From an uncultured Candidatus Saccharibacteria bacterium (GTDB lineage Bacteria; Patescibacteriota; Minisyncoccia; Phycocordibacterales; PALSA-1337): DNA of 64,000 nt. Shown piece by piece: positions 2,917 to 61,226 of the stretch. The stretch is taken from positions 3,626 to 67,625 of the forward strand of contig CAZHHB010000003.1 of the NCBI GenBank assembly GCA_964532285.1. The letters are read 5' to 3'. The notes under the pieces were generated by a model. The model saw only the letters and a list, made by a program, of their open reading frames with translations. It was not told where the DNA came from and searched no databases. Position 1 is the first letter of the stretch. The number at the start of each line of letters is the position of its first letter. Made by a program: the position numbers and the translations under genes.

Positions 2917-2921
2917 TTTTT

Positions 2922-19471: not shown

Positions 19472-19479
19472 GTTGTTTA

Positions 19480-44825: not shown

Positions 44826-45293
44826 ATGATTGAACTTACAACTGGCGTGGTCTTCCTTATGTCATCCATGTATGGATCGGCCCAGGGAGCAAACCACAGC
44901 AAAGCGATTGCAAATCATGTATTCTCAGAGGATCAGGTAGCAGCAGTAGTTGAAAGCTCATTTATAGAAACAAATACTCCAGAGGCTATGGAAGCATATC
45001 TCCGCAAGGAATTTGCTGACAGGCCTATATTGGTAGAGATTGCCCGTTGCGAATCAAATTTCAAACAGTTTGACGAAAACGGCCTCGTCGTCCATGGACG
45101 CGTTGACTCCAGAGACATCGGTCTCATGCAGATCAACGAACACTATCAGGGTGATACTGCCAAGAAGCTTGGTCTTGATCTATACACATTAGAAGGTAAC
45201 ATGGAGTATGCTGAGCATCTATATGATGAACAGGGTACAAAACCATGGAATGCTTCATCTAAGTGTTGGAATAAGGATCTTGCTAGGAAGTAA
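44826..45293 (+). CDS. Putative secreted lysozyme/transglycosylase-like domain protein
   Basis: IARCESNFKQFDENG...GLMQINEHY resembles transglycosylase-like motifs; followed by terminator ~45350-45385. Confidence 0.3.
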   Translation: MIELTTGVVFLMSSMYGSAQGANHSKAIANHVFSEDQVAAVVESSFIETNTPEAMEAYLRKEFADRPILVEIARCESNFKQFDENGLVVHGRVDSRDIGLMQINEHYQGDTAKKLGLDLYTLEGNMEYAEHLYDEQGTKPWNASSKCWNKDLARK

Positions 45294-45539
45294 TTGAGCT
45301 CAAACTCAACTACGCATTAACTATTATTAGGTATCAGAAAAGTTATAGAAACAAAAGCCCCAAGCCTAAAAGTGAGGGGCTTTTGTGTTGGGAGGGTATT
45401 CGAAAATAGGTCTCTAAATTCAATGGTGTAAGTCCTAATGTCGTACAACTAAGGATGACTTCCTAGTAGATTTCAATGATGAATTGATGAAGATTATTGA
45501 CAAAGTTCAGGATTGATAATAGTATACAATTGAACAAAA

Positions 45540-45863
45540 TTGATCTATATGAAAATACTAAAAAAGGTTGCATTGGCTGATCCCATAAGGATAGCTGGGA
45601 AGCGTCTTGTGTGTTCAGCTTGTAAAGCAGAATTTGAGCTGGAAGTAAGCGATGGGTCGTCAATCAGGGAAGCTGTTCTTCTTGAAACAAAGGCCACACC
45701 GCAAAATCGAGGTCTTCACATGATGAGACAATTGGTGATAACTTGTCCGAATTGTTATCACGATGTTCCTCTGGATGACCGGCTTCGACAATTCGAGTCT
45801 CAGTGGAAATGCATTTCGAGCTCGACAGGCGGTTATTCACAAATGGGGGGATTGCTTGGATAG
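45540..45863 (+). CDS. Hypothetical protein with CxxC...CxxC zinc-ribbon
   Basis: CSACK ... CPNCYH. Confidence 0.3.
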   Translation: MIYMKILKKVALADPIRIAGKRLVCSACKAEFELEVSDGSSIREAVLLETKATPQNRGLHMMRQLVITCPNCYHDVPLDDRLRQFESQWKCISSSTGGYSQMGGLLG

Positions 45864-46435
45864 AGGCTTTTGGAATCAGAGAGCTGGCGTACAAATGATA
45901 ATGTCGTCGGCTTTTTTTTACCAAAAAATCATATCGCAGTAAACAAACTGTGTAAGATATACAGCACCACAAACAATCTAGGAAGTCCAAAAAAACTTGC
46001 AGGACTGATATTTTGAGTTATATAATCACGGCAGGTCTTTAAAATACTGGCGGGAACGAGTGGGGGACCTGTTTTGGTTTAGGAGTTAATCTTCTTCAGC
46101 TTCCCCTTCAGGGTTTTTATGAATCTTGGAGGGGAAGTCTGTAAGAGTCGAACTTCCTAATTATAAGCCAAACAGAAAAATCCATATATGGGCAAAAAAC
46201 AGGCGGCGAACCGCAAAGTTACTGTTCACTGGATTGCTCTCTCAAACCTTAAAAATCTTAAGGTGAAGCGTCACGGATACATCGCTGGATGTCTATACAT
46301 CCCCTATGTCATCACGGACGATGGTCAGATGTACTTCGTAAAGAGGAATGTCTAACCTTCGCAGAACAATCTATATTCTCGTCAGTATTTTGAAGATCTA
46401 TTACTTTTCATAATCCTATCCTCTATACTTTTAAT

Positions 46436-46473
46436 GTCATTAGAAAACGCCAACCTGTGTGGCGTTTTCCTTT
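46436..46473. repeat. 38-bp perfect direct repeat (copy 1) containing a 9-bp-stem hairpin
   Basis: gtcattagaaaacgccaacctgtgtggcgttttccttt; identical copy at 51776-51813. Confidence 0.9.
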
Positions 46474-46475
46474 TG

Positions 46476-46499
46476 TTGACTTCTAAAATATGATATAAT
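46476..46499 (+). promoter_or_regulatory. Promoter-like element: TTGACT and extended -10 TGaTATAAT, with a 12-nt spacer (short of the canonical ~17 nt)
   Basis: Immediately downstream of hairpin repeat copy 1; ~600 nt upstream of the Dcm gene. Confidence 0.4.
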
Positions 46500-47092
46500 A
46501 TTGGTAGTGCTCTTATCTCTTCGGAGTACGATAGTGGAAAGAAGGGGGTCAGCATTCGAACAAAATGCTTTTGAAATATTTAGTGGTAAGCATTTTGGGG
46601 AAGGAAACTTCTCCAAGGTCAAACTTGAGGGTTAACTCCCAGAGTGCTGACCACTGAATAATTCTGAAGCACAAGTCCGAGGTGGTTTATAAGATTAATT
46701 TTGGGTGGGAAATATAGTCTGAACTTCGACCAGCGGAATCATCAGCCGTGACGACCTACACCTCAGTAGGTAAAGGCATTATACAGATGGTTAATTCAAC
46801 GAGCCATGTCAGAAAGACAATCCAGGCTCGCCGGACGTAATAAACTTGGCCAATTCGAGGAACTCGAAAAGGCAAAGGAGAAGAAGAGCTCGACAGTCGA
46901 GCATCTCGCTCTATCAGGTTACGGCGACGCCAAGAAGGACAAATAGCATTTGTCGCAGGGAAATTGAAAACCGCCCCTGCAAAGCAAGAACGGTTTTCGA
47001 TCAAATGTAAGTATTCTTACAAGCAAGACATCCTGAAGGGGTGTTTTGCTTTTTAATTATACCTTACAGAATTTGTACCTTATCAGACGTCT

Positions 47093-48352
47093 GTGGATAA
47101 TGCCACTTTTTGTATCCCTTGTATCCCAATGAAGATATCCACAGGGGTTTACTGGGTAAACATGATATCATGTTTACACAGTGCTTTTCTAATTGAAAAT
47201 ATCATGATGAATAAACAAATATTAATAAGAAATATTTCTCCTGAAATAAGCGAATGGATAGAAAGTGGACGCTTACAGAGTAACATGACTCAGCAGGAAT
47301 TTGTTCTGTCGATGCTGAAGAATGTTAGTACGAATCACTTAGATAATTCGCAGAGAATATTTCCACGACCGAACGTACCAACAACATTTAGTTTCATTGA
47401 TCTGTTTGCGGGGATAGGAGGTTTTAGGATTGCTCTTGAAAATCTTGGTGGTCGTTGCGTATTTACGTCTGAGTGGGACAAGTACGCTCAAAAAACCTAC
47501 AAGGCGTGGTTTGGAGATTTGCCTCATGGTGATATAAGACAGATAAATCCATCTGAGATTCCGGATCACGATATCTTGGCCGCAGGTTTTCCTTGCCAAC
47601 CATTTTCTATTGCCGGCGTGTCAAAAAAAATAAGTCTTGGAAAGGAGCATGGGTTCAATGATCAAAAGCAAGGAAATCTATTCTTTTATCTGGCTGATGT
47701 TATTGAGGCAAAAAGGCCCCCAGTAATTTTCCTTGAAAACGTCAAAAATCTGCAGTCACACGATCAAGGCAGAACATGGCAAGTTATAGAAAATAGATTA
47801 AAAGAGCTTGGCTATGCAATATTTCATAAAGTTCATAATGCGGCTAATTGGGTCCCACAACACAGGGAAAGAGTATTTATTTTAGGATTTGATAAGAGAG
47901 TATTTGGGGACAATGTAAAGTTTGAATTTCCAGAAACTCCTAATAGCAAACCTAAATTGAAGGACATCTTGGAAAAGAAGCCGGATTCCAAGTACACACT
48001 TACGCCACATCTATGGGAATATCTCCAAAATTACGCTAAACGTCATCGCGAGAAGGGTAACGGGTTCGGATTTGGCATTGCTGACCCAAACGGTATAACA
48101 CGCACTCTCAGCGCAAGATATTACAAGGATGGATCTGAAATCCTTATAAAGCAGAACGGAGGAAAGCCACCAAGACGATTATCACCACAGGAATGTGCAA
48201 AACTTATGGGGTTTCCAAAAGAGTGCAAGATTGTAGTTTCAGACACTCAAGCCTATAGACAATTTGGTAACGCTGTTGTGGTTCCGGTCATTCAAAGTGT
48301 GGCAAAAAATGCTATAGAGACTTTTTTAAAGCACAAGAAAATGAAGCGGTAA
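47093..48352 (+). CDS. DNA (cytosine-5)-methyltransferase (Dcm family); true start probably internal (~47206)
   Basis: FIDLFAGIGGF (motif I), GFPCQPFSIAG (motif IV), ENV (VI), RQFGNAVVVPV (X). Confidence 0.85.
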   Translation: MDNATFCIPCIPMKISTGVYWVNMISCLHSAFLIENIMMNKQILIRNISPEISEWIESGRLQSNMTQQEFVLSMLKNVSTNHLDNSQRIFPRPNVPTTFSFIDLFAGIGGFRIALENLGGRCVFTSEWDKYAQKTYKAWFGDLPHGDIRQINPSEIPDHDILAAGFPCQPFSIAGVSKKISLGKEHGFNDQKQGNLFFYLADVIEAKRPPVIFLENVKNLQSHDQGRTWQVIENRLKELGYAIFHKVHNAANWVPQHRERVFILGFDKRVFGDNVKFEFPETPNSKPKLKDILEKKPDSKYTLTPHLWEYLQNYAKRHREKGNGFGFGIADPNGITRTLSARYYKDGSEILIKQNGGKPPRRLSPQECAKLMGFPKECKIVVSDTQAYRQFGNAVVVPVIQSVAKNAIETFLKHKKMKR

Positions 48353-48415
48353 AGCAACCGGTGGGGACAATATGCGCACTGTCGCAAAAGCCTCAAAAGC
48401 GCTATTATTAAAGCC

Positions 48416-49603
48416 ATGAAACTTTCGGAATATTTTGCGTTTATATCATACAAGAGACTAAGTGCAGTTGAAACAGATACAGAGATTTCGCATCAGCATG
48501 AATTCAATGGCATAGGATCGTTAAAGGAAATGTTTGGCACCAGTAAGAAAGAATTCACAGCCAAGTTGGCCTACTTGGGCGAAGATCTTGATGAACCGCT
48601 TGTAGCCGATGTCGAAATGACTTGGTATGACGCGAGAGAGAAACATCTCACAAGAACCGAGTACAGGTTGTACTACAAACAGAGCGAAGTTAATAAGTAC
48701 ATGCAGGAAGGTGATTTGATGGTAGTCGGGTTGCGACCAGATGGAAAGATATATTTTTTTATTGCGCAGAAAGACTCGACGTATGCCAATCAGCTTGTGT
48801 TGCTTTTTGATTTGGAATCAGATATAGGAACTACTGCTAAGTCGAAAATGATTGCAGGAACGAAAAATGACGTGGAAAACGTGGATTTTGTACGCTCGTT
48901 TATTCTTGAAGAGCTTGGAATTGAAGTTAAAGGTACTGATGAAAATTATCTCGAGGCTCTATTGCAGAAGTTTCCTTCAGGGTTTCCGAATACCAATGAA
49001 TTCTCAGAATTTGCCCGTAGCACGATTCCGGGAATTGATTCTAAAATAGACCCGGATGGGGCCCTCATGAAATGGATGGAGCGGGAGGAACTTCTCTTTA
49101 GGACGTTGGAAAAACATCTTGTGTCTGAAAAAATCAAAAATATCGGCACAGATGTAGATCTGTTTATGAAACTATCTCTTTCGATACAGAACAGGAGAAA
49201 AGCTCGTGTTGGCTTTGCACTTGAAAATCATCTTGAGCGAATCTTTCTAGATTGCGAGGTTCAATATTCTCGTGGAAAAGAAACAGAGAATAACTCCAAA
49301 CCTGATTTTGTATTTCCAAGTATTGAAAATTACCGTGATGCAAAGTTTCCAGATGAAAAATTATTTATGCTCGGATCAAAATCGACTTGTAAAGATAGGT
49401 GGAGACAAGTTTTGGCTGAAGCGGCTAGAATTAAGAACAAGCATTTACTTACTCTGGAACCAGGTATCAGTGTTAACCAAACATCAGAGATGATGGCCAA
49501 CAATCTCAATCTCGTAATTCCTCGAGAACTTTTTGGAACCTATACTAACGACCAGCAAAAATGGCTCCTGAGCCTGAAAGACTTTATTGCTCTTTTGGAT
49601 TAA
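48416..49603 (+). CDS. Putative Type II restriction endonuclease partner of the m5C MTase
   Basis: Immediately downstream in same orientation; possible PD-(D/E)xK-like segment KPDFVFPS...ENYRDAK; no family recognised. Confidence 0.35.
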   Translation: MKLSEYFAFISYKRLSAVETDTEISHQHEFNGIGSLKEMFGTSKKEFTAKLAYLGEDLDEPLVADVEMTWYDAREKHLTRTEYRLYYKQSEVNKYMQEGDLMVVGLRPDGKIYFFIAQKDSTYANQLVLLFDLESDIGTTAKSKMIAGTKNDVENVDFVRSFILEELGIEVKGTDENYLEALLQKFPSGFPNTNEFSEFARSTIPGIDSKIDPDGALMKWMEREELLFRTLEKHLVSEKIKNIGTDVDLFMKLSLSIQNRRKARVGFALENHLERIFLDCEVQYSRGKETENNSKPDFVFPSIENYRDAKFPDEKLFMLGSKSTCKDRWRQVLAEAARIKNKHLLTLEPGISVNQTSEMMANNLNLVIPRELFGTYTNDQQKWLLSLKDFIALLD

Positions 49604-49626
49604 AGTCGCAGCTTATAGATCAATAT

Positions 49627-49827
49627 TCATTAGACGCTCTAAGCAGGAGGCGAGGATTTGACGATGGTCTGGGGTCGGATAGCCCAGTATTCGCGGTACC
49701 GAAATGTCCATTTTTTGATTACTCGTATAGTCACCTTGCAAGATCGTCCCGTGGGCAAACACACCACTCGCCCCGACCCAACTTTAAGTGTGATAAGCGG
49801 TTACTATTTCGCCACTCCTGCACGGAG
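49627..49827. repeat. ~200-bp repeat, copy 1 (~90% identical to 55012-55213)
   Basis: Begins TCATTAGAcgctct..., ends ...ccactcctgcacggag; shares the TCATTAGA start with the 38-bp repeat. Confidence 0.85.
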
Positions 49828-50103
49828 TAGGGAACACATTTATGAATAACCATGCACCATAGGCGTGCAAGTCAATTATCTATAATCTGTAATCAGTAAG
49901 TTATTATTCGAAAGCGGGCAAAAAGATTTGTTATTGGCGGGAATTACTCATGGAAATGACTTGCTACGAGCAAGCCAAACTTTTGCAACATCGGACGATC
50001 TATATCAATAGGGAATGGCTTTAAGAAGAATTGGGCTAGAAACAGACCATGTCGCACAATAGAAACTTGCAAGTCACATTGTCGCACAACTGTGGATAAC
50101 TTT

Positions 50104-50811
50104 TCACTGGTTCTGCCAGACCTCTACAAATGTACCAACATCATTATTATCGAAATGACTATCAAGAGGCCATATTTTCTTGAATTCAATTAGCTTAAAG
50201 CCTGCTGAAATAAATTGATCATGCGCAAATTTTCTTGAAACCTTGTACTCAAAATTATCGCTAGTAGCAGTCTGATTCAGAAACTTTTCCAGTTCAGGAG
50301 ATTTGTTAGGTATCTGATCGTACAAATATTTGTAATAATCAATGGTTATTTTTGGATTCGGACTATAAATCTCACCTAAGAATACTAAACCTTTTGACCG
50401 CAATGCTTTTTTGATCTGGGAGATGTATAGATCTTTTTTGTCATCAGGTACATGGTGGTATGCAAACATCGATATGACAATGTCGGATTTACTTGGAAAA
50501 TCAACATTCAATATATCATTAGAAATAATTTCAACCCGAGCGTGAATGTCTGATTTTTGCGCAATATCTAAAAATTCCTTATTGATATCGATTAGCAGTG
50601 CTCTCTTAATCGAAAATTTTTTGGAAAGAAGATTGGTATTGACTCCGGTACCACAGCAAAAGTCAGCGACAGTAATATCTGTGAGGTCTTGGAGATATTT
50701 ATTACATAAATCGAGGAATGCGGATTCGGCACCCGTATAGTCTGGCCTTAAATGTTGAAGCAAGTTGTAATCACCAGTTGATTTTTTGTATAACTCTATA
50801 TCAGCATCCAT
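50104..50811 (-). CDS. Class I SAM-dependent methyltransferase
   Basis: VADFCCGTGVNT motif I. Confidence 0.55.
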   Translation of the reverse strand: MDADIELYKKSTGDYNLLQHLRPDYTGAESAFLDLCNKYLQDLTDITVADFCCGTGVNTNLLSKKFSIKRALLIDINKEFLDIAQKSDIHARVEIISNDILNVDFPSKSDIVISMFAYHHVPDDKKDLYISQIKKALRSKGLVFLGEIYSPNPKITIDYYKYLYDQIPNKSPELEKFLNQTATSDNFEYKVSRKFAHDQFISAGFKLIEFKKIWPLDSHFDNNDVGTFVEVWQNQ

Positions 50812-50927
50812 GCTGCAATTTTACCACAAATTTTTATCTTTATTCATACCTACAGGCATATTACCAGAACCCACTCTGGACAGATGTTGACTTTCGTATT
50901 GTAATGTGGTAACCTCTTAGAAGTTCC

Positions 50928-51716
50928 TTGTTAAACAACCAACGTAGTATACTTAACCTCATGAACACAACTACTTCAGTTTCGGCAGAAGGGTTCGCCC
51001 TTCAACTCTCTCGGAGAGTCCTCGAACCTGAAGAAGTAATTTCAGGGGAAGAGGCAAAAGCATACGCCAATCGGCGTGACAACAGAACGCTGAGCTCAAA
51101 ACTCATCGCTACTGACATTGTGGAGAAGCTCTTGCTCACTCCTGCGTCAAACGTCTTGGAAGTCGCTTGTGGTCCCGGCCAGCTTGCTTATGAGCTTTGG
51201 AAAGTCGTAGGTTGCTCGATAACAGCAACCGACGGCAGTCCCGAACTTATCGAGGCAGCTACCGATCGCTACAAACAAACTTCGATACGCTTTGCTACGG
51301 AAAATCTGCATAGCCATAACGGGAAAGGGGAATACGATGCTGTGATCTGCAAAGATTCATTTCATCACTTCTTTGATTCCGAGAAGGCTGTCGCAGAGAT
51401 GCTCTCACTCTTGAAGCCCAGCGGTAAAATCTACATCTTTGATTTGTGCAGGAATGTGCGAATCGAAGAAGTGGAATATCGTTTGTCTTCGATACAGGCA
51501 TCACATGAACAGATGCGCTTTCTTAGGTCCTTGAACGCCTCGCTTACGGTTCAGGAATTTAAGGAAGCTTGCGGCACATCTAAGGTTTCTGTTTTCTACC
51601 CTCTCGGTTTCTCGCAAGAGAATCTGAATGCGCACGAAACAGAGATTGAGGCTGATGTTGTGAAGGAGTTCAAGCTCTCCTCGCTGTTCTCGGTATACAT
51701 TGTAGAAAAAATTTAA
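50928..51716 (+). CDS. Class I SAM-dependent methyltransferase
   Basis: VLEVACGPGQLA motif I; LKPSGKIYIFDL. Confidence 0.6.
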   Translation: MLNNQRSILNLMNTTTSVSAEGFALQLSRRVLEPEEVISGEEAKAYANRRDNRTLSSKLIATDIVEKLLLTPASNVLEVACGPGQLAYELWKVVGCSITATDGSPELIEAATDRYKQTSIRFATENLHSHNGKGEYDAVICKDSFHHFFDSEKAVAEMLSLLKPSGKIYIFDLCRNVRIEEVEYRLSSIQASHEQMRFLRSLNASLTVQEFKEACGTSKVSVFYPLGFSQENLNAHETEIEADVVKEFKLSSLFSVYIVEKI

Positions 51717-51775
51717 CCCCCGCGATCTGAAATATGGTCGCGGATTTCTGTTATTGTGATATACTAATGATGTTC

Positions 51776-51813
51776 GTCATTAGAAAACGCCAACCTGTGT
51801 GGCGTTTTCCTTT
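51776..51813. repeat. 38-bp perfect direct repeat (copy 2)
   Basis: Identical to 46436-46473. Confidence 0.9.
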
Positions 51814-51834
51814 ACTATATAGGCTGATTAATCT

Positions 51835-52257
51835 TTAGTCGGATTGAAGATTTTCTTGCAATTGAATAACATAGACCTTTCCAACATTCGGCATCTCAAT
51901 TTCCTCCGGGGTATAGCGTCCTTTATATTTTTTAGCATCAAGATCAAATTTAATAAGAAATGAATTTGCACTAATATGACCTCCTCCTTGTTTCGGAGCC
52001 ATCTTGATCTTCAACATACCTTCCTCAATTTTGTTAGAAAATTTGAAAGCTACAGCCTTTTTTTCCTTATCATAAAATAGCTTAACAGCTGAGGTGCTAG
52101 AATCGATGTCATATTTCTTTATAAATCCAGCACTTACACCAAATCCTCCACTTTCACCGAGGCTAATACTGGGTATAATCCGTCCACCTATTGCATTGTA
52201 TTCCTGAAAATTGTATTTATCCATACGCTGGTATACTAGCAAAATTCCATTAACCAT
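51835..52257 (-). CDS. Hypothetical protein
   Basis: ORF only. Confidence 0.3.
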   Translation of the reverse strand: MVNGILLVYQRMDKYNFQEYNAIGGRIIPSISLGESGGFGVSAGFIKKYDIDSSTSAVKLFYDKEKKAVAFKFSNKIEEGMLKIKMAPKQGGGHISANSFLIKFDLDAKKYKGRYTPEEIEMPNVGKVYVIQLQENLQSD

Positions 52258-52760
52258 GCAAGTTGCTCCAAACTTTACACTAATACATATTTATTATCTA
52301 ATCTATTATCCAGACATTTTTCTATTTACATTTCCGGTAGATATGCGGTACAATTGTGGTAATTGAAAAGGCCAGAACAGAGTTCTGACCGTATCAAGAT
52401 TACCAGCCGCCAAAATACTTATATACATAAAATGCTCTGACAGCGTTTGTGGGTCAACAGTATTTTGGCGAAATTAATCATTTTCTATAATACAGGAAAT
52501 GTTTAATGTCCGCAATCTAAGATATCAACACGTATGTACCGAACTCGCTTCGATATATACCAGGATATCGCTGGAGGTTTTAGGTGGAGATTGATCGCTG
52601 CAAACAACGAAATCGTTGCAATCAGTGAGTCATACACTTCTCGTCATGGCGCTCTTGCGTCAGCAAGGAAGGTCGCCGCTTGGGCCTCATCGGCAACGAT
52701 ACCTTCGGTATAAACCTCTCATGGTTTTTGAACACAGACTCATCATCGGGTCTGTGTTTT

Positions 52761-53924
52761 TTATACGAGCTCAATCAACTTTTTCAAAAACAATTTGCTA
52801 GCTTCAGTATCAATTTGATTATTCGAATTCAAAATAAGCTTATGAATGACGTCACCTTCAAATTGAGCAACTCCTCTAGAATTTCTACCAGCCCAGTGCT
52901 TTAGAAGAATCGTTGATTTGAGTAGATCCTTTTGGAACATTGAGATTAAAGTCTGCGCGACGATCTTGTTTGGTTCGAGCCCAATAAAATAGAACATGAA
53001 CACACTTTTTTCAGTAGAAAGGAAATCTAGAATTTTATCGAGGTTGTATGCCTTCGGATTTGATTTCAAGATCATAATCTTTGTCTTGACATCTGTTGCG
53101 GTCAAATATTTATCAAAAACTTTCGTATAGTCACCTAGATCATTTTTTGTGCCGTAAGGCGATATTTTCTTATTGGCATTGTGTAGTTCTTTCACAAGAT
53201 TTGCCCTAAGCGCTTCATCTTCACCAGCGATCAAGTATTCGATAATTCTGCCGCGGATATTAACATTTTCGATGAAGCCGGCGATTAGAATTTCAGTTTT
53301 GTATTTTTCTACTTTTGCATCGAGATCAGATTTCAAATCCTTGTACTCTTCTGATGTCACGAACTGCTTTGCTCTTTCTGGGGCTGATAATATTATGGCT
53401 TGGGCAGATGTTGATACTTCGAACTTCTTACCAGACGGAGTAATTCCAGTGGTAGCTTCGACAAGACGTGCTAAATTTCCGTTGAACCCGAGTTCCGCAT
53501 GTATGGAAAATAGTTGCTGAAAATTCTTGGGAGAATTAGTCAATCCATCAAAGATCTTAGTGATATCTGATCCATTAAAACTACCCCTGATATTATCCAC
53601 CCTAAATTCTTGTGAACTGTGGCTGATCTTCTTCAGAAATGTTGAATTGGCAAGATAAATGACGTTTTCCTTCGGCGTTACTAAACAAACTAAGAAAGGA
53701 ATTCCGTCATATTTTTGTAGGTTTGATAGTGAAAGGACCGTGTTAGAAAAGCTAAGAGAACCTGAAGAGCTGAATCGAATAGCACAATGCTCTGAATAAT
53801 ACACGCTTCGATCCTTGGTTAGACTAAATTTTTGTTGAACTTCATTTATTAGGACAGATTTATTACCAATACCATTCTTTAATAATATAAAGTCGATAAG
53901 TGCAAAGACTTTTTCGTTAATCAT
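52761..53924 (-). CDS. Putative restriction endonuclease partner of the N4/N6 MTase
   Basis: Start of MTase... stop overlap: this ORF begins 4 nt inside the upstream MTase gene (translationally coupled); no family recognised. Confidence 0.3.
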   Translation of the reverse strand: MINEKVFALIDFILLKNGIGNKSVLINEVQQKFSLTKDRSVYYSEHCAIRFSSSGSLSFSNTVLSLSNLQKYDGIPFLVCLVTPKENVIYLANSTFLKKISHSSQEFRVDNIRGSFNGSDITKIFDGLTNSPKNFQQLFSIHAELGFNGNLARLVEATTGITPSGKKFEVSTSAQAIILSAPERAKQFVTSEEYKDLKSDLDAKVEKYKTEILIAGFIENVNIRGRIIEYLIAGEDEALRANLVKELHNANKKISPYGTKNDLGDYTKVFDKYLTATDVKTKIMILKSNPKAYNLDKILDFLSTEKSVFMFYFIGLEPNKIVAQTLISMFQKDLLKSTILLKHWAGRNSRGVAQFEGDVIHKLILNSNNQIDTEASKLFLKKLIELV

Positions 53925-54943
53925 ATAAGTTGTGCCTGTAGATCAAATGCCATTTTCTTCTTTTCAGTCGTTTGATCAGTTAGCGAATTACGTTCCCAGA
54001 ATACACCATCAGCGTATCCTTGAATAGTTGGGCTATTTTCGACAAATCCGATACGCTTTTCTGCTAAGCAGCAATAGTCCTCATTCATCTCAACACCGAC
54101 ATAATTTCTGTTAAGCTTTTTGGCGACTACTGCGGTTGTGCCTGAGCCCAAAAATGGATCTAGTATTACATCACCCTCATTCGTTGAGGCTAGAATAATT
54201 TTAGCTACTAGCTTTTCAGGTTTTTGAGTCGGGTGATCAGTATTTTCTGGCATTGACCAGAAGGGAATAGTTATATCAGTCCAAAAATTTGATGGGTGTG
54301 TGAGTCTGAACTTTCCATCATCATCTTCTGTCCAATCCTTAGCAACCCCATTTTCTCTATAGGGAGCAATGACTTTTTTCTTCAATTTAACAGCATCAAC
54401 GTTAAACTTGTAGTCGTCAGATAGGGTGGCAAACCAAATATCCTCAGAGCAATTTTTCCAGTTACTCAAAGCACCTCGGCCTTTTTCTCTTTCCCATGTG
54501 ATACGGTTTCTGACTTTTAGATATTTATCTAATACATTAAAGATCATGGGGGAACTCTTCCAGTCACAACATACATAGACAGATGCATTCTCTTTGAGAG
54601 TGTGCATTATCGAAAGCAACCACTTTTCAAAAATTGCTTCATAATCATCCTTGTTTTTTTCACGGAATTTATTATTACCAAAATCCTTATTTAAATTATA
54701 GGGAGGATCAATAAATAGAAGGTCGACAAATCCTTTTGGTAATTTTCCTGACACATCTTCTAGCTGCCCATGTATGGTTTTATTAAGAAAATTGTTATCA
54801 ACATCCTGGCCTAGCAGTAATCTTTTACGCAGATATTCAACCTCGTCTGCTCGGACAAATGTGGTTCTATTATTTTTTGCTCTAATTTTTTCAATCATAT
54901 ATTTGTAGTTGTTAGTATTATACCAAATTTCGTGCAAAAACAA
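53921..54943 (-). CDS. DNA methyltransferase, beta-class N4-cytosine/N6-adenine (DNA methylase N-4/N-6 domain)
   Basis: FIDPPYN (motif IV, DPPY) preceding VILDPFLGSGTT (motif I). Confidence 0.8.
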   Translation of the reverse strand: MFLHEIWYNTNNYKYMIEKIRAKNNRTTFVRADEVEYLRKRLLLGQDVDNNFLNKTIHGQLEDVSGKLPKGFVDLLFIDPPYNLNKDFGNNKFREKNKDDYEAIFEKWLLSIMHTLKENASVYVCCDWKSSPMIFNVLDKYLKVRNRITWEREKGRGALSNWKNCSEDIWFATLSDDYKFNVDAVKLKKKVIAPYRENGVAKDWTEDDDGKFRLTHPSNFWTDITIPFWSMPENTDHPTQKPEKLVAKIILASTNEGDVILDPFLGSGTTAVVAKKLNRNYVGVEMNEDYCCLAEKRIGFVENSPTIQGYADGVFWERNSLTDQTTEKKKMAFDLQAQLI

Positions 54944-55011
54944 ACGATTTTCGATATAATGACAGCATTAACCCCACTGCCACTGCTTGACGAAGCAAGG
55001 GCAGTTTTTGT

Positions 55012-55213
55012 TCATTAGATGCTCTGTGCAAGAGGCGAGGATTTGACGAGAGTCTGGGGTCGGACTAGCCCAGTATTATCTTTACCGAAAAGTCCATTTT
55101 TTGATTACTCGTATAGTCACCTCGCAAGATCGTCCCGTGGACAAGCACACCACTCGTCCCGGCCCAACTTTAAGTGTGATAAGCGTTTACTATTCCGCCA
55201 CTCCTGCACGGAG
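55012..55213. repeat. ~200-bp repeat, copy 2, abutting the integrase gene
   Basis: Aligns with 49627-49827 with ~20 substitutions and a 1-nt indel. Confidence 0.85.
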
Positions 55214-55233
55214 CATCTTATGAAAGAACAAAG

Positions 55234-56094
55234 TCAGATATACTTCTGCGCGTTAGCCAGCATCTCGTTTTGATCGTAATTGAGATATATCAGGGCAGAG
55301 TAGGGGCTAACGTGACCGAGCATCATCTGAATATCTTTGAGATCCGCACCCCGAGCTTTCATACGGTGAGCTTTTGCATGTCTAAACATGTGCGGGGTGA
55401 TCTTTTTTGTGATGCCGGCCGATGCTGTAATCTCTCTGATCCATCGTTCGATGGTTCGAGGTGTTAAGCGTTCCCGTCCTGGCTTATCGAGAGACAAGAA
55501 CAAGCTTGGCTTTTGGTTGATGCAGATGCGACTACCGAGCCAACGGAGCAGGGTATTCTGGTGAAAATCCGGAGCCCAGGCGATAACACGGATACGCTTA
55601 TTTTTCTTTGTTTCGATGCAAGTATGATTTTCAGTTGATGACATCTGATTCACATTTAGCTCACATAATTCGCTTACACGAACGCCTGTGTTGTAGAGCA
55701 TATGGAGAATGGTCAGCTTTTGTAGATCGTGAAGCTCATATGGATTCAATGTTTTACACATTGCGTTGAATTCATCATCAGTGACACCCACACGGGGCTT
55801 TTGAGAATATTTTGGGCCCTCGATCAGGAATGGATTCACAGAGGATTCTTGGATCGAATTCAGGTAACGAAAGAAATTTTTGAGAATGCGACAGGAATAG
55901 GCCACTGTCGGAGGATTGTTTTTAGTAGAGAGAAATTTATGAAATTCCACGATATCCGTATTCTTCATATTTTTCGTATCCACATTGCGAAAATTCATCA
56001 GCCGGTGAAGATAGCTTTTGTATATGTCCGCTGCTCGCGGGCTTCTGATGACTTTCCAATCTAGATAATCTTTTATTGCTTGCTCTATAACCAT
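55234..56094 (-). CDS. Tyrosine recombinase / phage-type integrase
   Basis: C-terminal HMFRHAKAHRMKARGADLKDIQMMLGHVSPYSALIY (H-x-x-R ... H ... catalytic Y). Confidence 0.8.
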   Translation of the reverse strand: MVIEQAIKDYLDWKVIRSPRAADIYKSYLHRLMNFRNVDTKNMKNTDIVEFHKFLSTKNNPPTVAYSCRILKNFFRYLNSIQESSVNPFLIEGPKYSQKPRVGVTDDEFNAMCKTLNPYELHDLQKLTILHMLYNTGVRVSELCELNVNQMSSTENHTCIETKKNKRIRVIAWAPDFHQNTLLRWLGSRICINQKPSLFLSLDKPGRERLTPRTIERWIREITASAGITKKITPHMFRHAKAHRMKARGADLKDIQMMLGHVSPYSALIYLNYDQNEMLANAQKYI

Positions 56095-56111
56095 TGTATT
56101 TTTTGATTAAG

Positions 56112-56912
56112 TTAATAATTTATGACCCTGTATCTTTTGTAAGTGGTATGACCTGTCCATGTGTTGTAGGGAAGATCCCTGGATTCTTCAAGCTTGTACT
56201 CGATTGGTTTCTCATTTATGTATTCGATATCGAGTGGTGGATTGCGGATAACTATTGGCTTGATCAGTCCTCGGGAAGTGAAATAGCATTTTTCGTTGAA
56301 TAGTCTGGCGTCGACGACGCCTTTTTGCAGATACTTGGAAACGTATGCACCGATAGATTGAATGTGCTCGATTCTGTTGATTTTGATGAACCCATGAGAC
56401 CAGATTTTTGCCAGATCATCGTTGACTATGTAGGGAAGATTGAAGAAGACAGTGTGATAATGAACAGCTCCGCGTTTCTGAAATTCAACTACTGAAACAT
56501 ATTTGAGAGCGTGCCCGATTTGATAGTTCAGTCGCATCATGAATTTCCTCCACATCTCATTTGCCTCCTTGAGGATGGTAATATTTTCGGCGAAAGTGAA
56601 TGTTACGAACTTGTCTGAGTGTTCAGGATACTGACCGGAATTACATGCAATCAGGCGTCGTATATGCAGTCTGGCGCGTGATATTGAGAATGGTCGGCGT
56701 ATTCCTAGATTTCTATGTCCTGTGCGTTTCCTGCGGCGATTTCGAGACTTCAATTGACCACCGAAATGTATGTCTTTCTCAAATTCGTAGACTTCTTTAA
56801 CTGGACCAGAGATAACAGCTTTGTACTTTGAGAAATCTACTCCCCATTTAATTTTGTGTAATTCGTCGAAAGCCCTGCCAAGCTGATCGACAGAATATAT
56901 CTGATTGTCCAT
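56112..56912 (-). CDS. Rolling-circle replication initiator (HUH endonuclease superfamily Rep)
   Basis: Motif 1 FVTFTF, motif 2 VHYHTVFF (HUH), motif 3 YVSKYLQK (catalytic Tyr). Confidence 0.75.
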   Translation of the reverse strand: MDNQIYSVDQLGRAFDELHKIKWGVDFSKYKAVISGPVKEVYEFEKDIHFGGQLKSRNRRRKRTGHRNLGIRRPFSISRARLHIRRLIACNSGQYPEHSDKFVTFTFAENITILKEANEMWRKFMMRLNYQIGHALKYVSVVEFQKRGAVHYHTVFFNLPYIVNDDLAKIWSHGFIKINRIEHIQSIGAYVSKYLQKGVVDARLFNEKCYFTSRGLIKPIVIRNPPLDIEYINEKPIEYKLEESRDLPYNTWTGHTTYKRYRVINY

Positions 56913-56976
56913 GACTATTTAGTTTTTAATGATTCTGATTATGTGTGAGAGAGGTCGAGTCTAGAAAGAGTCTCAT

Positions 56977-57678
56977 TCATATATGATAAACCTTTTCAAA
57001 ACCACAGTTCGGATAATCACAGTGACGCTCCTCGTGTCTCAAGGCAGGGTAGGAGCCACGAACAATCTTTTGAGTAGTGTCGAAGATCTCACAGTAGCGA
57101 CGTTGAATAAGGAACATTGAGGGAACAGAGATCGAACTGGCAAACTTTTTCTTATCCTCATTGTAGGAACGAGGATCTAACTCACGAGAGAGACATACGC
57201 CCCATATACGCTCTACAGGAGGCCTTGTGGCACTTGGCCGGGGAGAACCAACAATCTTTCGAATCTCATAGAGGAAATTCGTCAGTCGACGGAATGATTT
57301 ATCAACTTGAGCAAAGTCCTGAGCAGATCCGTATACTTCTATTCCACACTTAGCACCTTGCGTAAGCCACTTACGGACATCGAGAGATAAATCTTGCCAC
57401 TGATGACTATCAAAGTAATTTCCGACTTCATCGATAATGACATCGCATTGTTCATACTTCACCAGATCATCCAGATTTTCCCAGTACATGATCGGGACTT
57501 TCATTTCTTCTACCGCCCATTTATAGAACTCTTCTGAAAAACGTAGATTCGAAACTATTGGCCGAACGACACCGCTTGTCTGTAACCACTTGGAGTTTCG
57601 ATATACAAGCTTCACACACATCATGGCGAGCCTTAAAGACTTACCGGATGATTCAAGACCTGAGTAGATTATTTTCAT
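56977..57678 (-). CDS. Zot-like P-loop NTPase (inovirus pI-type assembly ATPase)
   Basis: Walker A GLESSGKS near N-terminus, Walker B VIIDE; position next to pVI-like gene. Confidence 0.5.
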   Translation of the reverse strand: MKIIYSGLESSGKSLRLAMMCVKLVYRNSKWLQTSGVVRPIVSNLRFSEEFYKWAVEEMKVPIMYWENLDDLVKYEQCDVIIDEVGNYFDSHQWQDLSLDVRKWLTQGAKCGIEVYGSAQDFAQVDKSFRRLTNFLYEIRKIVGSPRPSATRPPVERIWGVCLSRELDPRSYNEDKKKFASSISVPSMFLIQRRYCEIFDTTQKIVRGSYPALRHEERHCDYPNCGFEKVYHI

Positions 57679-57704
57679 TTTATATTTATGTTATTTGTTA
57701 ATAA

Positions 57705-57971
57705 TTAACTGCCTGACTGATTACCGCGTAGGACAGAGACGACCCACTTCAACGCTTGCCATCCCCATATCGCAATATGGAACGTTAAGACAGTGCCCAC
57801 GCAGATAAACAATGTGTCGATCGGAAGAAGAAAATTCCATGCCTTCATATAACCGATGATCAGAGAAATCGACGATGCGATAACAGGGGAGAGTGCACCG
57901 GCCACAGGTAAAATATTCAGGACGACAATGAACAGACCGAGGAATAGAATGAAGAAGATTGCAAATGTCAT
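57705..57971 (-). CDS. Small multi-TM membrane protein (pVI-like position)
   Basis: Three hydrophobic helices; overlaps upstream gene by 4 nt. Confidence 0.35.
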   Translation of the reverse strand: MTFAIFFILFLGLFIVVLNILPVAGALSPVIASSISLIIGYMKAWNFLLPIDTLFICVGTVLTFHIAIWGWQALKWVVSVLRGNQSGS

Positions 57972-59377
57972 AGAAGTTTTCGATTCCTTGCCTCATGGAA
58001 CAGATACCATGCAGTCAAGAAATAAGTTACTGCGACCATTAATCCTCGTAAGAGACCAACATACGAGGGTGTTAAAAAATATCCGATCGTAGACGTGGAA
58101 AACATGTCTATCTTGATTGTCGTTGTAGCGGTAGCTACACCGGATATTCCGAACTTCACCGGAAACTTAACCGAGAAGGATCCGGAGGGAATGGCTGAGG
58201 CGGAGGTGGAACCATTAACAGCATTATAAATTACCGATGAAATTTGGAATACATAAGCGAAAGGAACTTTTGTAGCGAGAAGATTAGGAACATTAACAAA
58301 CGAGAGCATATCTGTAGAAGTCGGAAGAGAATTATTCCCAAAATTCGCACCAGTAAAAGGATTATTGTTGATACCCCCTGCGACAATTGTCGAAGAAGTA
58401 GCCACAGTAGTGGTAGTAGTAGAAGTAAGCAGAGCAGGAGCCACCCCGGAACCGGTAAATGGATCATACCCGCAAGTGGATTGATAGAGTTGAGCATTGA
58501 ACTGTTGATTTGGAGTTAACGAGTAAGTTGTTGAGGTCGCACCAACGGAAACGCTAGAGTCTATAATATCGAATGTGAAATTGAAGGCGCCGGAAGTAGT
58601 GGCATAGATAGGAGCGGTCGTGATAGGGAAGACACCATGCAGAGAAAGTTGTCGATGAGATTCAAGGCCAGTGTTCTGCCAGACATCAAGATACTGAGAA
58701 GCACACGCCGTTGTTGAAGCTGTCCATGTACCGCTGACATTGAATGTACCGGCAGCAGGATTGAGAGTGGTAGAGGTAACGGCGGGAGTATAAGTCTGAC
58801 CGTATTGATCAGTAACTATAAAATACGCGTCATTTATTGTAGAACAAGTACCCGTAGAGCCATTCATAGTGCCTGTACCAGTAAGACACTGACCATTCGC
58901 ATACGTATTAGCTACTGAACCATAAAGCTTAACTGTTATGAATTGCCCCCAAGATCCAATACCTACATAGAGATACTTACCAGCAGTAATTACAGTGGTT
59001 GTGGAATATGTAAGATACTGAAGATAGTCATTGCTACCTAAACTGTCTTGACCACCGCCTAAATTTCCGGCGGTCGACAAAAGGGTATAGTTAATACACT
59101 GCGACATATCCGTAACCAAGTTGTCACAAGTAATCGCGCGGATGCCGCCACCACCAGAATATGTAGAATTGTAACGAATCGAAACCCTACCCAAAGTAAA
59201 TGTTGAAGAAACCTGACCCAGAGACTGCAAGAAGAAACGTGATTGACCAGAACCAATACCATAAGTAGCGCCAGAGCTATAATCAGTTTGCTGATACAGA
59301 GTGGCCGCATTAGCTGACCTTGATCCCAAAAAGACCAAAGAGAGCAGAAAGAGGGAAGTGTAGATTATTTTCTTCAT
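57968..59377 (-). CDS. Secreted Ser/Thr/Gly-rich protein (pIII-like adsorption protein position)
   Basis: Signal peptide MKKIIYTSLFLLSLVFLGSRSANA; low-complexity T/S/G-rich body; C-terminal hydrophobic anchor. Confidence 0.45.
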   Translation of the reverse strand: MKKIIYTSLFLLSLVFLGSRSANAATLYQQTDYSSGATYGIGSGQSRFFLQSLGQVSSTFTLGRVSIRYNSTYSGGGGIRAITCDNLVTDMSQCINYTLLSTAGNLGGGQDSLGSNDYLQYLTYSTTTVITAGKYLYVGIGSWGQFITVKLYGSVANTYANGQCLTGTGTMNGSTGTCSTINDAYFIVTDQYGQTYTPAVTSTTLNPAAGTFNVSGTWTASTTACASQYLDVWQNTGLESHRQLSLHGVFPITTAPIYATTSGAFNFTFDIIDSSVSVGATSTTYSLTPNQQFNAQLYQSTCGYDPFTGSGVAPALLTSTTTTTVATSSTIVAGGINNNPFTGANFGNNSLPTSTDMLSFVNVPNLLATKVPFAYVFQISSVIYNAVNGSTSASAIPSGSFSVKFPVKFGISGVATATTTIKIDMFSTSTIGYFLTPSYVGLLRGLMVAVTYFLTAWYLFHEARNRKLL

Positions 59378-59644
59378 GAGATAAGGTTAAAACTAATAAT
59401 TCTGATTGTTCCTCGCATGCCACATAGGAATGATGTGATTTTTGAAATTTATTCTGTAAAGGGGATTCGCCTGTTGTTTATCGCAAGAAAAATTTAACGC
59501 AAATTTTTCTTGCTCGGGGAACTCACCCCTTGACAGAACAAATTCTCAAAAATACTGATCCTCATATGGCATGCGAGGGACGCCCGCATACCAGGTGTAG
59601 TCGGCGGCTCGGAGCTTCGCAATTCCGAGTCCGCCGACCTACAT

Positions 59645-59953
59645 CTAGAACTTCCTGCCAGTGATGTAGTGCTTGAACTTCCTGATACCCCAGCCGAGAC
59701 CCAATAGGGCAGCCAAGAGACCAAGAATCGCGCCAACTACAGCTCCAATGATCACAGCGACGTCACCGACGAGGCTATTGACCAAGGTAGGCGCTGTCGT
59801 AGTTCCAAAGGTATCCGCAAACGCATACGAACAGGTTGCGATTACTCCGGTAACAACTCCAACGACACCAGCAAGCTTGTACTTCAATTTTGAAATCATA
59901 TTTGCTTGAATTAATTTTAATAATGCTGATCTGGTGCCGGTGCCGAAACACAC
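59645..59953 (-). CDS. Major coat protein-like (pVIII-like)
   Basis: Signal peptide ending AFA, acidic N-terminus (DTFGTT), hydrophobic core, basic C-terminus RKFKHYITGRKF; start probably internal (MISKLKYK). Confidence 0.5.
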   Translation of the reverse strand: MCFGTGTRSALLKLIQANMISKLKYKLAGVVGVVTGVIATCSYAFADTFGTTTAPTLVNSLVGDVAVIIGAVVGAILGLLAALLGLGWGIRKFKHYITGRKF

Positions 59954-60267
59954 GACCCATTAATGTATCGACCTGGAGTGCGAACTCCGAACGCTCCCTC
60001 AAACGAATCTACTAAAATTTGAGAGAGCTCTCGGAACTAACAACTATGATCTCCACCAAAAGAGTAATAATGACCAAACTAGCCCCACAGCTATGCCATA
60101 GCCACTGCAATATCCGAAAAATAGAACTACATCGAGGTTAGACATATCGGTTAATGGTCTCGCATAATGAACCACTTAAATATCGTCAAGGGCACCATGA
60201 AATAGAGTGGTATGAACCAGATCTGCATGAACTCTTGAGGTATTGCGAGATAATCCATGGATTAGAT

Positions 60268-60480
60268 TTAAGATTTTCTAAACAGCCAAATGATAAAGAT
60301 CATGGAGGCCATAGCTACCCCAAAACCGTATGCGAACAGAAGGGGAGTGAGATCGACACTGACAGTGCTCGTACCGACCGATGAGCAAGAAGATTCTGAA
60401 AACTGGAAGAACTCTCCGGATACCGGGGCAGTGTCTTGACCGTTTAATGGAACCGAATATGTGCAGTTTTCAGTTATCAT
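60268..60480 (-). CDS. Small coat-like membrane protein
   Basis: C-terminal TM + basic tail (MASMIFIIWLFRKS). Confidence 0.3.
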   Translation of the reverse strand: MITENCTYSVPLNGQDTAPVSGEFFQFSESSCSSVGTSTVSVDLTPLLFAYGFGVAMASMIFIIWLFRKS

Positions 60481-60484
60481 AGAT

Positions 60485-60667
60485 TTACTTTATGGTCGGC
60501 AACTTGTCCTCGGGATTTAGTGCTTCTTCGAAGATGTGTTTCCAGAAATAGAAAACGGTAGGATCGTTAGCGAAGTAAGCACAGAGCATAAATATCAAGG
60601 AATCGGGCACGACGTTCTTATTGATTGCAAGTGATTTGTTGTTCACTTTGATGTGTATGTTTTTCAC
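60485..60667 (-). CDS. Small hypothetical phage protein
   Basis: ORF in module. Confidence 0.2.
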   Translation of the reverse strand: MKNIHIKVNNKSLAINKNVVPDSLIFMLCAYFANDPTVFYFWKHIFEEALNPEDKLPTIK

Positions 60668-60763
60668 GTTATTATTTTATTTTTTTGTTACGATGTTGCG
60701 ATGTATACATGAGCCGCCAAGGAAGTAAGCTTGGAAACTCATGATGAAAGGGAATAGGTGCGA

Positions 60764-60997
60764 CTAGAGAGGTCTGACGGCGACGATCTTGAGCGAAGCC
60801 AGGCGGTTGCTGCCGGAGACGATGTCTATGTCGGCTTCAACGTCTTGATCGAGCAGGTTTGCAATATTGCCAACCTTGTTGCGATCGAGCTTGAACTTCA
60901 AAATCTTGCCGTTATAACGAGCTTGGATATTGGAGTACTTGACCCCTTGATATTCACCCTCGTTAAATTCGAACAAAGCCAATTTGATTGTTTGCAT
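60764..60997 (-). CDS. Small protein at head of phage module (possible ssDNA-binding gV analogue)
   Basis: 77 aa, position and size only. Confidence 0.2.
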   Translation of the reverse strand: MQTIKLALFEFNEGEYQGVKYSNIQARYNGKILKFKLDRNKVGNIANLLDQDVEADIDIVSGSNRLASLKIVAVRPL

Positions 60998-61226
60998 GTA
61001 GCGTTTGGATTAGAAAATCGCCCGTGATCTCCCGTGCAGGGAAATATCACAGACGATTCTGTTTTGTTTATAAACGACCTTTAATGTTGGTAGGGAGGCC
61101 CTTACTAGCCGGGCTTTGCTCTCAACACTCTGGGTCTATTGTATGTCGCACAATATATCTTTTTGCATTATGTATACCTGATAAAGGAGCCCTTATATTG
61201 ATATAGGCGTTGACCTAGGTGGATAC

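Follow-up and report, generated by a model that had tools for sequence, protein, structure and literature searches.

What placed two restriction-modification (R-M) cassettes, framed by the same pair of repeats, next to a tyrosine recombinase gene in a Patescibacteria genome? The question is raised by a 64-kb stretch of DNA (the window, by which we mean the whole stretch analysed) in which a 38-bp hairpin repeat and a 205-nt non-coding repeat, here called LONG, each occur twice. An earlier note had taken the locus for a hotspot at which a recombinase slots different R-M modules between conserved boundary sequences, in the manner of integrons. We find instead that the region from 45438 to 61154 is very probably a tandem pair of related integrative inovirus-like elements, A and B, each carrying its own R-M cargo. 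The variable slot and the tyrosine-recombinase integration site of the earlier proposal both stand. Its repeats, on the other hand, are not recombination boundaries: the attachment (att) sites are copies of a 12-bp core, ATGTCGCACAAT. The hairpin and LONG are landmarks of a backbone shared by the two elements, and they are duplicated in the window because two related elements lie there in tandem.

Attachment core and element boundaries

The island (15.7 kb) is an insertion that separates two host genes (Table 1). To its left lie the genes for CysRS, CorA, an S41 peptidase, L9, L27 and an SLT-like protein, and to its right a small gene followed by those for an M23 peptidase and GluRS (gltX); these are ordinary Patescibacteria housekeeping genes. 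The locus was compared with others from metagenome and genome contigs, which are given L-numbers (L001 and L030 are assemblies that provided gene calls for the locus itself). A 24-nt stretch of LONG was found exactly in four metagenome and seven genome contigs of Patescibacteria metagenome-assembled genomes, and protein-based searches added further loci; LONG is present in the window, L003-L017 and L022-L028.

Two loci, L019 and L021, show what the site looks like when it is empty. Their synteny is that of the window (gltX-M23-o101-like / o155-like-L27-L9-S41-CorA-CysRS), the two host genes are ~250 bp apart, and the gap holds a single copy of the core. The window contains three copies in direct orientation, two exact and the leftmost with two mismatches; the chance expectation for the exact 12-mer ATGTCGCACAAT in the window is ~0.008. 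The same core is found at the o101-side junction between element and host in L007, L014, L016, L017, L022-L024 and L027, while L008 has GTGTCGCACAAT at the left-core position, beside its o155 homologue. L027 is one element with a core at each end. Single cores in empty sites and cores at the element junctions form the classical signature of site-specific integration, here at ATGTCGCACAAT, and the three direct cores of the window therefore delimit two tandem elements, A (45438-50049) and B (50049-61143). A further core-like site, TTGTCGCACAAC, is located at 50079-50090, near the middle core.

A scan of the window for tRNA and tmRNA genes, which might have made LONG a tRNA-type att site, found none. 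Integration by host XerCD at dif, as in integrative mobile elements exploiting Xer (IMEX), would not describe the locus: the element has its own integrase, and the core lies in a specific intergenic region of conserved synteny. In a distant relative that has no LONG (L029; ERZ19028406 scaffold_1103, 453-7521; integrase 66% identical), the core is located 14 nt past the integrase stop, and a truncated second integrase follows 2 kb downstream. The core directly after the integrase stop in L029 implies that the position of the phage attachment site (attP) is not uniform in the family.

Judged by its sequence, element B would be an inovirus-like prophage with two cargo slots. Its phage genes are all on the minus strand, its length falls within the range of 5-15 kb, and it encodes a small coat-like protein whose features follow the pattern of inovirus pVIII. 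The rolling-circle replication protein (Rep) is of the G2P/ORF2 type and shows HUH-like HYH and YVSKY motifs. The 233-aa candidate for a pI/Zot-like morphogenesis ATPase has no Pfam match in the window; one of its weak matches, phrog_1675, is protein I of M13, and its homologues in L017 and L027 carry PF05707 Zot, again as a weak match. The region of the 88-aa open reading frame (ORF) and the 469-aa protein has no family match and is conserved in L009, and the right end of the element is 79-93% identical at the nucleotide level in L007, L014, L016 and L017. The gene order of element B recurs in L009, L014-L017 and L022-L028, and protein-based searches of IMG/VR returned three relatives. The integrase itself is Xer-like, with matches to XerA/XerD-like families below their cutoffs. 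Its stop codon lies 13 nt from the B copy of LONG, which bears out the earlier remark that an integrase gene abuts the distal long repeat.

Element A is arranged as small ORFs, hairpin, EcoRII-like R-M system, LONG, 220 bp of unique sequence and the middle core. No integrase, Rep or structural genes were found in it; A would be either a prophage that has decayed or a satellite-like mini element that depends on B. Layouts with a missing or truncated integrase also occur elsewhere: LONG is followed by the core in L010 and L003, integrase stumps are present in L006/L011 and L012, and L029 combines a full and a truncated integrase. L010 (CAINCE010000014.1, 2458 bp) reads LONG - core - 117-aa ORF - hairpin - three-ORF cargo - LONG. 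A direct repeat of 105 bp at its termini lies wholly within LONG, and its cargo is the same as that of the full phage L015. This contig is either a 2353-bp circle or the product of an assembly break between the LONG copies of a tandem array, and the latter is at least as likely.

We propose that the Xer-like integrase would recombine ATGTCGCACAAT with the same core in the host intergenic site between the SLT-like gene and the small gene. Two successive integrations, whose order we infer, would yield three direct cores, and element A would have lost, or would never have had, the module that extends from the integrase to the coat gene. The R-M systems presumably shield both host and element from other phages and stabilise the element.

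Table 1. Features of the island and its host flanks, in window coordinates (MTase, methyltransferase; REase, restriction endonuclease; m5C, 5-methylcytosine; SAM, S-adenosylmethionine; LONG_A and LONG_B, the copies of LONG in elements A and B).
Feature	Position	Strand	Description
Host SLT-like gene (o155)	44826-45293		left of island; terminator after it
Left att core ATGTCGTACAAC	45438-45449	+	two mismatches; 145 nt past SLT-like gene and terminator
Element A	45450-50048		4.6 kb; bounded by cores at 45438 and 50049
104-aa ORF	45549-45863	+	gene call in L001/L030; second-slot cargo of A; sub-threshold DUF7560 match only
55-aa ORF	46188-46355	+	gene call in L001/L030; no family match; ends 80 nt before hairpin A
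Hairpin A	46436-46473		GTCATTA, 10-bp stem GAAAACGCCA/TGGCGTTTTC, CTTT; intrinsic-terminator-like
Leader of EcoRII-like cassette	46474-47203	+	non-coding, ~700 nt
Dcm/M.EcoRII-type m5C MTase, cassette 1	47093-48352	+	PF00145 E=8e-89; TIGR00675; PADLOC MTase_II
EcoRII-family REase, cassette 1	48416-49603	+	PF09019 EcoRII-C E=2e-66; PADLOC REase_II; PDB 1na6 E=4e-38 (3hqg ~1e-38)
LONG_A	49624-49832	-	non-coding; integrase-proximal inverted-repeat end truncated by ~9 nt
Middle att core, exact ATGTCGCACAAT	50049-50060	+	A/B junction
Element B	50061-61142	-	11.1 kb; exact cores at both ends; putative inovirus-like prophage with two cargo slots
Class I SAM MTase	50104-50811	-	PF13649/PF08241; second-slot cargo of B; NCBIfam sub-threshold only
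Class I SAM MTase	50928-51716	+	PF13649/PF08241 (Methyltransf_25/11); second-slot cargo of B
Hairpin B	51776-51813		same sequence as hairpin A; 21 nt past stop of 140-aa ORF; divides second-slot from first-slot cargo
140-aa ORF	51835-52257	-	last gene of B first-slot cargo; weak phrog_18159 match (family with no assigned function)
Type II REase, cassette 2	52761-53924	-	full-length PADLOC REase_II PDLC03461, 495 bits, E=3e-149
Beta-class N4/N6 MTase, cassette 2	53921-54943	-	PF01555 E=3e-44, 152 bits; PADLOC MTase_II; gene call start 54898
LONG_B	55010-55221	-	complete; ~21-nt imperfect inverted-repeat ends; between integrase stop and cargo
Xer-like tyrosine integrase	55234-56094	-	PF00589 E=1e-28; phrog_1
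Rolling-circle Rep, G2P/ORF2 type	56112-56912	-	PF23343 E=7e-22, 78 bits vs cutoff 27.8; phrog_3419
pI/Zot-like morphogenesis ATPase candidate, 233 aa	56977-57678	-	weak phrog_20922 E=3.5e-8, phrog_1675 E=7.5e-5
88-aa ORF and 469-aa secreted protein	57705-59377	-	C-terminal anchor on 469-aa protein; pVI/pIII-like by position and features
84-aa major-coat-like protein	59645-59899	-	signal peptide, acidic N-terminus, hydrophobic core, basic C-terminus; gene call
Conserved right end of element	60746-61142	-	77-aa ORF 60764-60997 and core-adjacent arm
Right att core, exact ATGTCGCACAAT	61143-61154	+	adjoins host gene 61227-61532
Host small gene (o101)	61227-61532		right of island

Backbone landmarks and exchangeable cargo

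From their gene content, both cassettes appear to be genuine type II R-M systems, and the composition that had been read from the letters was confirmed for each. In cassette 1, the Dcm-type m5C MTase (PF00145) adjoins the 395-aa ORF, which has the EcoRII catalytic domain and belongs to the EcoRII family of REases. The MTase probably starts at 47204, as in a 382-aa gene call from another assembly. The PDB match of the REase spans residues 176-394 only, with the N-terminal 175 residues unmatched. The leader upstream contains terminator-like hairpins at 47021-47051 (+) and 46888-46902 (-) and a possible 46-aa ORF, and it has no homology in the relatives examined. As a candidate known RNA, the 620 nt at 46474-47092 gave sub-threshold Rfam matches throughout (rli61, E=0.15). 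Cassette 2 combines a PF01555 MTase with an adjoining REase of the recognised family PDLC03461, the two genes overlapping by 4 nt; Pfam, NCBIfam and PDB searches returned no relative of this REase. The 140-aa ORF that accompanies them has no Pfam, PADLOC or NCBIfam match. Two SAM MTases had been described as sitting between the cassettes. The genes are there, but they are second-slot cargo of the right-hand element, B, and neither of them matches a DNA-MTase family.

The backbone of the family is core - slot 2 - hairpin - slot 1 - LONG - integrase - Rep - structural genes - core. LONG directly follows the integrase homologue in nearly all relatives, the hairpin lies further on, and both occupy the same integrase-relative positions in more than 15 loci; the landmarks were recorded from ~20 Patescibacteria loci overall. 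Slot 1, between the two landmarks, holds an EcoRII-like R-M system in element A, the beta-MTase/REase system in element B, an NYN-domain gene in L008, L013 and L022-L026, three small ORFs in L010 and L015, and in L007 a mere 3 bp with no cargo. In five further loci there is no hairpin on the available DNA, so that only the LONG-side boundary is known and the extent of the cargo is undefined; the genes adjacent to LONG are MTase-like in L009, a longer NYN-like gene in L011, helicase and ParB-like genes in L012, and DUF3800 in L016 and L027. The second slot, from hairpin to core, contains the SAM MTases in B and two small ORFs in A. Comparison of the repeats with related genomes, which the earlier note had proposed as a check, thus shows them bounding other cargo (NYN genes, small ORFs) or none. 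The note had also drawn attention to the similar spacing of hairpin and LONG in the two cassettes (3188 and 3242 bp). The near-equality is real, the start-to-start distances being 3190 and 3235 bp. In relatives with both landmarks, however, the gap runs from ~3 bp to ~1.2 kb, and to 3.2 kb with the window included, so the similar size is probably coincidental, each R-M system consisting of two genes.

Several relatives share the chromosomal context of the window, though their host proteins are only ~50% identical. The integrase of L007 is 96.5% identical to that of the window, compared with 56% for gltX and 48% for the M23 peptidase, and LONG is 90-97% identical across the context-sharing relatives. 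A shared context and near-identical integrase and LONG sequences in hosts with ~50% identical proteins indicate that the family is mobile across divergent hosts and uses one target site. The cargo is not flanked by target duplications. Conserved flanks at fixed positions enclose unrelated cargo in close relatives, as in the hypervariable or defence regions of phages, and outside the hairpin and LONG the units of A and B share no homology. Close backbones with unrelated cargo suggest that relatives residing in, or infecting, the same cell most likely exchange slot-1 cargo through homologous recombination in these conserved flanks.

The two hairpins are identical at 38 of 38 positions, as had been claimed, and are the only copies in the window. 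The hairpin and its TCATTA flank are conserved in L007, L008, L010, L013, L015 and L022, where the top stem pair shows a compensatory change. Hairpin A has a flank that resembles that of L013 (85%, L013/L005), not that of hairpin B. Within the window, both repeat types do open with the octamer TCATTAGA (46437, 49627, 51777 and 55012), which has seven sites there against ~4 expected; in relatives the LONG edge conserves it only loosely (TCATACGA, TTATAAGA, CTATAAGA, AAATAAGA). An inverted copy, TCATAAGA, is found at 55214-55221, the integrase-side edge of LONG. Across relatives an octamer of the loose form TYATWMGA is found left of the hairpin and at the outer edge of LONG, with an inverted copy at the opposite end of LONG; a half-site for protein binding is one possibility. 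Independent assemblies (L002, L031 and L034, from Logan ERR3094292) break exactly at the hairpin and LONG, and many contigs of the NYN-carrying relative (L022-L026) stop just past the hairpin. Such breaks fit sequences that are repeated, or a flanking slot that is heterogeneous in natural populations.

In a blastn comparison of the window with itself, the two copies of LONG (49626-49827 and 55011-55213) are 90.6% identical with one 1-nt indel, in agreement with the repeat of ~200 bp and ~90% identity reported before and far beyond chance; a profile search widens them to 49624-~49830 and 55010-55221. Each repeat type is present exactly twice in the window, the homology stops sharply at both edges of both, and the sole other self-BLAST repeat is one of 56 bp at 18332/20492. 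LONG_A is 97% identical to its counterpart in L013/L005, 95% to that in L009 and 90.6% to LONG_B, which in turn is closest to L007 and L008 (93%). LONG_A being nearer to copies in other genomes than to LONG_B, sequence comparison indicates that the two have separate ancestries and did not arise by duplication in situ.

What might LONG be? It is not protein-coding: its copies differ by frame-breaking indels of 1-2 nt, and the overlying ORFs are not kept. It cannot be an attP arm of the integrase, as the core is 5-6 kb off on either side in element B. No sigma-70 promoter was found within it. Rfam gave no match at gathering thresholds in the window, and within 45200-56200 the lone match overlapping LONG had E=3.5. 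BLAST of LONG against INPHARED phages and exact-match scans of IMG/VR for both repeats likewise found no match. In some relatives LONG is conserved beyond its neighbouring gene (in L009, 95% identity vs 74% for the integrase DNA), and a 30-nt stretch is invariant in the initial alignment of 11 copies; L015, L016 and L022 depart from it at one or two positions.

An alignment of 13 sequences yields a consensus fold for LONG of 52 pairs, with 93.9% of cells paired and compensatory changes at 8 pairs. Its covariation score was reached by 0 of 500 column shuffles, and pairing in slid controls falls to ~40%. The best-supported hairpin includes GGGC/GCCC changing to GGAC/GTCC, GATGAG/CTCATC, ACTAG/CTAGT and TTCAG/CTGAA, and in its common variant it relies on G.U pairing on the minus strand (the coding strand, presumed to be the viral one as well). 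Total G.U counts were also tried for a strand call and proved indecisive, each strand's fold having G.U pairs of its own; the one covarying hairpin favours minus. In the variants of L022 and L017 the outer stems are kept and the inner hairpins replaced, and three structural variants of LONG can be distinguished. LONG is retained in all deletion derivatives (L006/L011, L012, L007, L010, L003 and element A).

By analogy, our best guess is that LONG would serve as a cis-acting single-strand element of the viral/coding strand, for example a complementary-strand origin or a packaging site; the alternative is a structured RNA between the integrase and the cargo. One may go further and suppose that LONG is an undescribed cis-acting single-strand element or structured RNA specific to this Patescibacteria inovirus-like family, and that integrase-less minis such as A and L010, having retained just LONG, the hairpin and the att core, are satellites that travel with the full phage and spread defence cargo. 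We regard this extension as tentative and on balance doubtful. Were it true, tandem arrays could yield new minis by rolling-circle replication from LONG to LONG.

Alternative explanations and other features of the window

Under an integron-like exchange, the integrase would recombine sites at the hairpin and LONG (TCATTAGA) and slot circular R-M cassettes between them. The octamer opens both repeats in the window and also LONG in L013 and L022, the hairpin always has its TCATTA flank, the other LONG end has the inverted TCATAAGA, and the cargo boundaries match the outer edges of hairpin and LONG exactly. L007 can be cited on either side: its hairpin abuts LONG with the flanks CCATTAGA and TCATACGA, but a hairpin with a 3-nt spacer and no cargo is not an attC that a cassette has brought with it. 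In most relatives the LONG-edge octamer is altered, each element has one hairpin rather than one per gene cassette, and multi-gene cargo has no internal hairpins. The integrase is not of the IntI type, scoring far under the integron-integrase cutoffs (64.7 bits vs 265 for TIGR02249; 35.6 vs 435 for NF011946). Moreover, it is the ATGTCGCACAAT cores that occur at both ends of an element and once in an empty site, and an attI-type insertion would not give two LONG copies, a duplication that tandem elements do explain. We consider this mechanism very unlikely, and the earlier analogy with integrons and cassette exchange has to be given up. Still harder to credit, indeed extremely improbable, is a tandem duplication in situ of a ~5.35-kb unit (hairpin - cargo - LONG - spacer), with later replacement of the cargo in one copy. 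It would accommodate the 100% identity of the hairpins and the nearly equal start-to-start spacing of the repeat pairs (5340 and 5385 bp), but LONG_A is nearer to L013 (97%) and L009 (95%) than to LONG_B (90.6%), and hairpin A is flanked by sequence that matches L013 rather than hairpin B. The units have no other homology, an exact att core lies between them, and the layout LONG-core-hairpin-cargo-LONG also occurs in an unrelated bin, L010.

The island could also be one composite element that integrated once, the core at 50049 being a leftover or regulatory sequence and A the distal cargo arm of B. That A lacks both integrase and Rep, that its core-adjacent arms are not conserved and that A and B are together in all assemblies of this population are in line with such an origin. 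It is nonetheless distinctly unlikely: the exact 12-mer (~0.008 expected) sits where the backbone order, LONG then core, predicts it, and A repeats the entire non-phage backbone (hairpin, slot, LONG). In single elements such as L027, slot 2 is followed directly by the terminal core, and other degenerate arrays are known (L011/L006, L029, L010). A further proposal makes LONG the origin of Rep. Rolling-circle replication from LONG_B to LONG_A would then free a 5.4-kb single-stranded DNA circle, containing cassette 2, the hairpin, the SAM MTases and the core, and tandem arrays would in this way produce and reshuffle minis, as CTX/RS1 arrays do for CTX phage. Both LONG copies are directly oriented, every deletion derivative retains LONG, and mini layouts with LONG closely followed by the core recur in L010 and L003. 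The invariant 30-nt stretch (11 aligned copies) is mostly unpaired in the predicted fold and includes TTGATTA, which resembles CTTGATA, the site nicked by Reps of the phiX174/pC194 type; a YxxKY motif is present in the Rep of element B. TTGATTA is, however, on the strand opposite the genes, and the full prophages L017 and L022 have altered LONG variants. In addition, the point at which mini and full LONG copies diverge differs (near position 160 for L010 and L003, at the extreme end for A), which disfavours a fixed nick or termination site. We judge this proposal unlikely.

Two related elements integrated in tandem therefore remain the explanation that we favour, and several observations weigh against it. 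The left core has two mismatches, and the core-adjacent arms are not conserved in A, so that A may be unable to integrate independently; it could be the remnant of an older array. The exact A+B array occurs only in assemblies of one population. No circular or excised form was seen. The exchange mechanism is read from mosaicism only. As for the inovirus label, its basis is weak matches to pI together with features of the sequence, and no significant family match was obtained for any virion protein. As to LONG, its folding energy is no better than that of shuffled sequences (z = -0.28, +0.98), covariation can arise without structure among related sequences, and co-variation would also be expected of inverted repeats to which a dimeric protein binds.

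Outside the island, the region 10000-21000 has a G+C content of 0.45-0.51, vs ~0.37-0.43 elsewhere in the window, which suggests a compositionally distinct block (DEAH helicase, RNase III, a large sigma factor and a helicase pair). The sigma factor (14264-17293, minus strand) is a 1009-aa sigma-70 family protein with regions 2, 3 and 4 and a DnaA C-terminal helix-turn-helix between regions 3 and 4; a 242-aa ORF beside it has a weak DnaA_C match. The helicases (17462-19471 and 19622-21616, plus strand) are adjacent ResIII/SNF2-type paralogues with different C-terminal repeat tails, four DUF4379 zinc fingers in one and four HNH_repeat units in the other, and the 56-bp repeat at 18332/20492 lies inside these two genes.

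Relation to known systems

The locus provides a cleanly bounded example of a family of integrative filamentous-phage-like elements in Patescibacteria, with an empty site, an att core and a backbone map. The family moves among hosts that share only ~50% identity in their housekeeping proteins, and its defence cargo is interchangeable, with two complete R-M systems, as we read them, in one array. Mobile elements and defence traffic in the candidate phyla radiation (CPR) are poorly known, and the attB core together with the LONG and hairpin landmarks should ease the finding and delimiting of such elements in metagenomes. With the 205-nt LONG, the family also supplies a specific candidate for a new cis-acting element of replication or RNA type.

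The principle is not new, since hypervariable defence slots and tandem prophage arrays have already been described in other inoviruses. Inovirus prophages of Vibrio have hypervariable regions (pHVRs) with defence systems that include R-M, often in tandem arrays (PMC12715192). Roux et al. (PMC6813254) have predicted that CPR hosts carry inoviruses, and defence hotspots of P2/P4-like phages and satellites are attributed to Rousset et al. 2022, as cited in PMC12715192. Like the pHVR-bearing prophages of Vibrio, the elements described here are small prophages of the filamentous-phage type that have a defence slot at a fixed position between conserved flanks and stack at one site. They differ in their Patescibacteria (CPR) host, in using their own Xer-like integrase at a 12-bp intergenic core rather than host XerCD at dif, and in flanks that consist of a specific 38-bp hairpin and a 205-nt non-coding element.

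The CTX/RS1/TLC arrays of Vibrio cholerae, familiar from the CTX literature, likewise place a filamentous prophage beside a shorter relative that has no morphogenesis genes, with shared direct non-coding repeats. In the present array, integration would not proceed by host XerCD/dif, and element A has no Rep, whereas RS1 keeps rstA. The resemblance to integrons lies in a tyrosine recombinase gene next to a conserved non-coding site, beyond which comes promoter-distal cargo with a hairpin at its end; here, however, there are no attC-like R/L boxes, and the recombination core is kilobases away.

LONG may be compared with the single-strand origins (sso) of plasmids and with the Ff intergenic region, an analogy that does not derive from sequence similarity. 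It is ~200 nt long, non-coding, apparently strand-dependent, conserved above its neighbouring genes and placed beside a terminator hairpin and a replication module. A neighbouring terminator hairpin is likewise found at the Ff intergenic region and at the sso of plasmids. Of the two R-M systems, cassette 1 resembles EcoRII (CCWGG; PDB 1na6) in its Dcm-type MTase and EcoRII-C domain, the N-terminal effector domain being unmatched, and cassette 2 resembles the beta-class N4/N6 type II systems in its PF01555 MTase, whose gene overlaps that of a PDLC03461-family REase.

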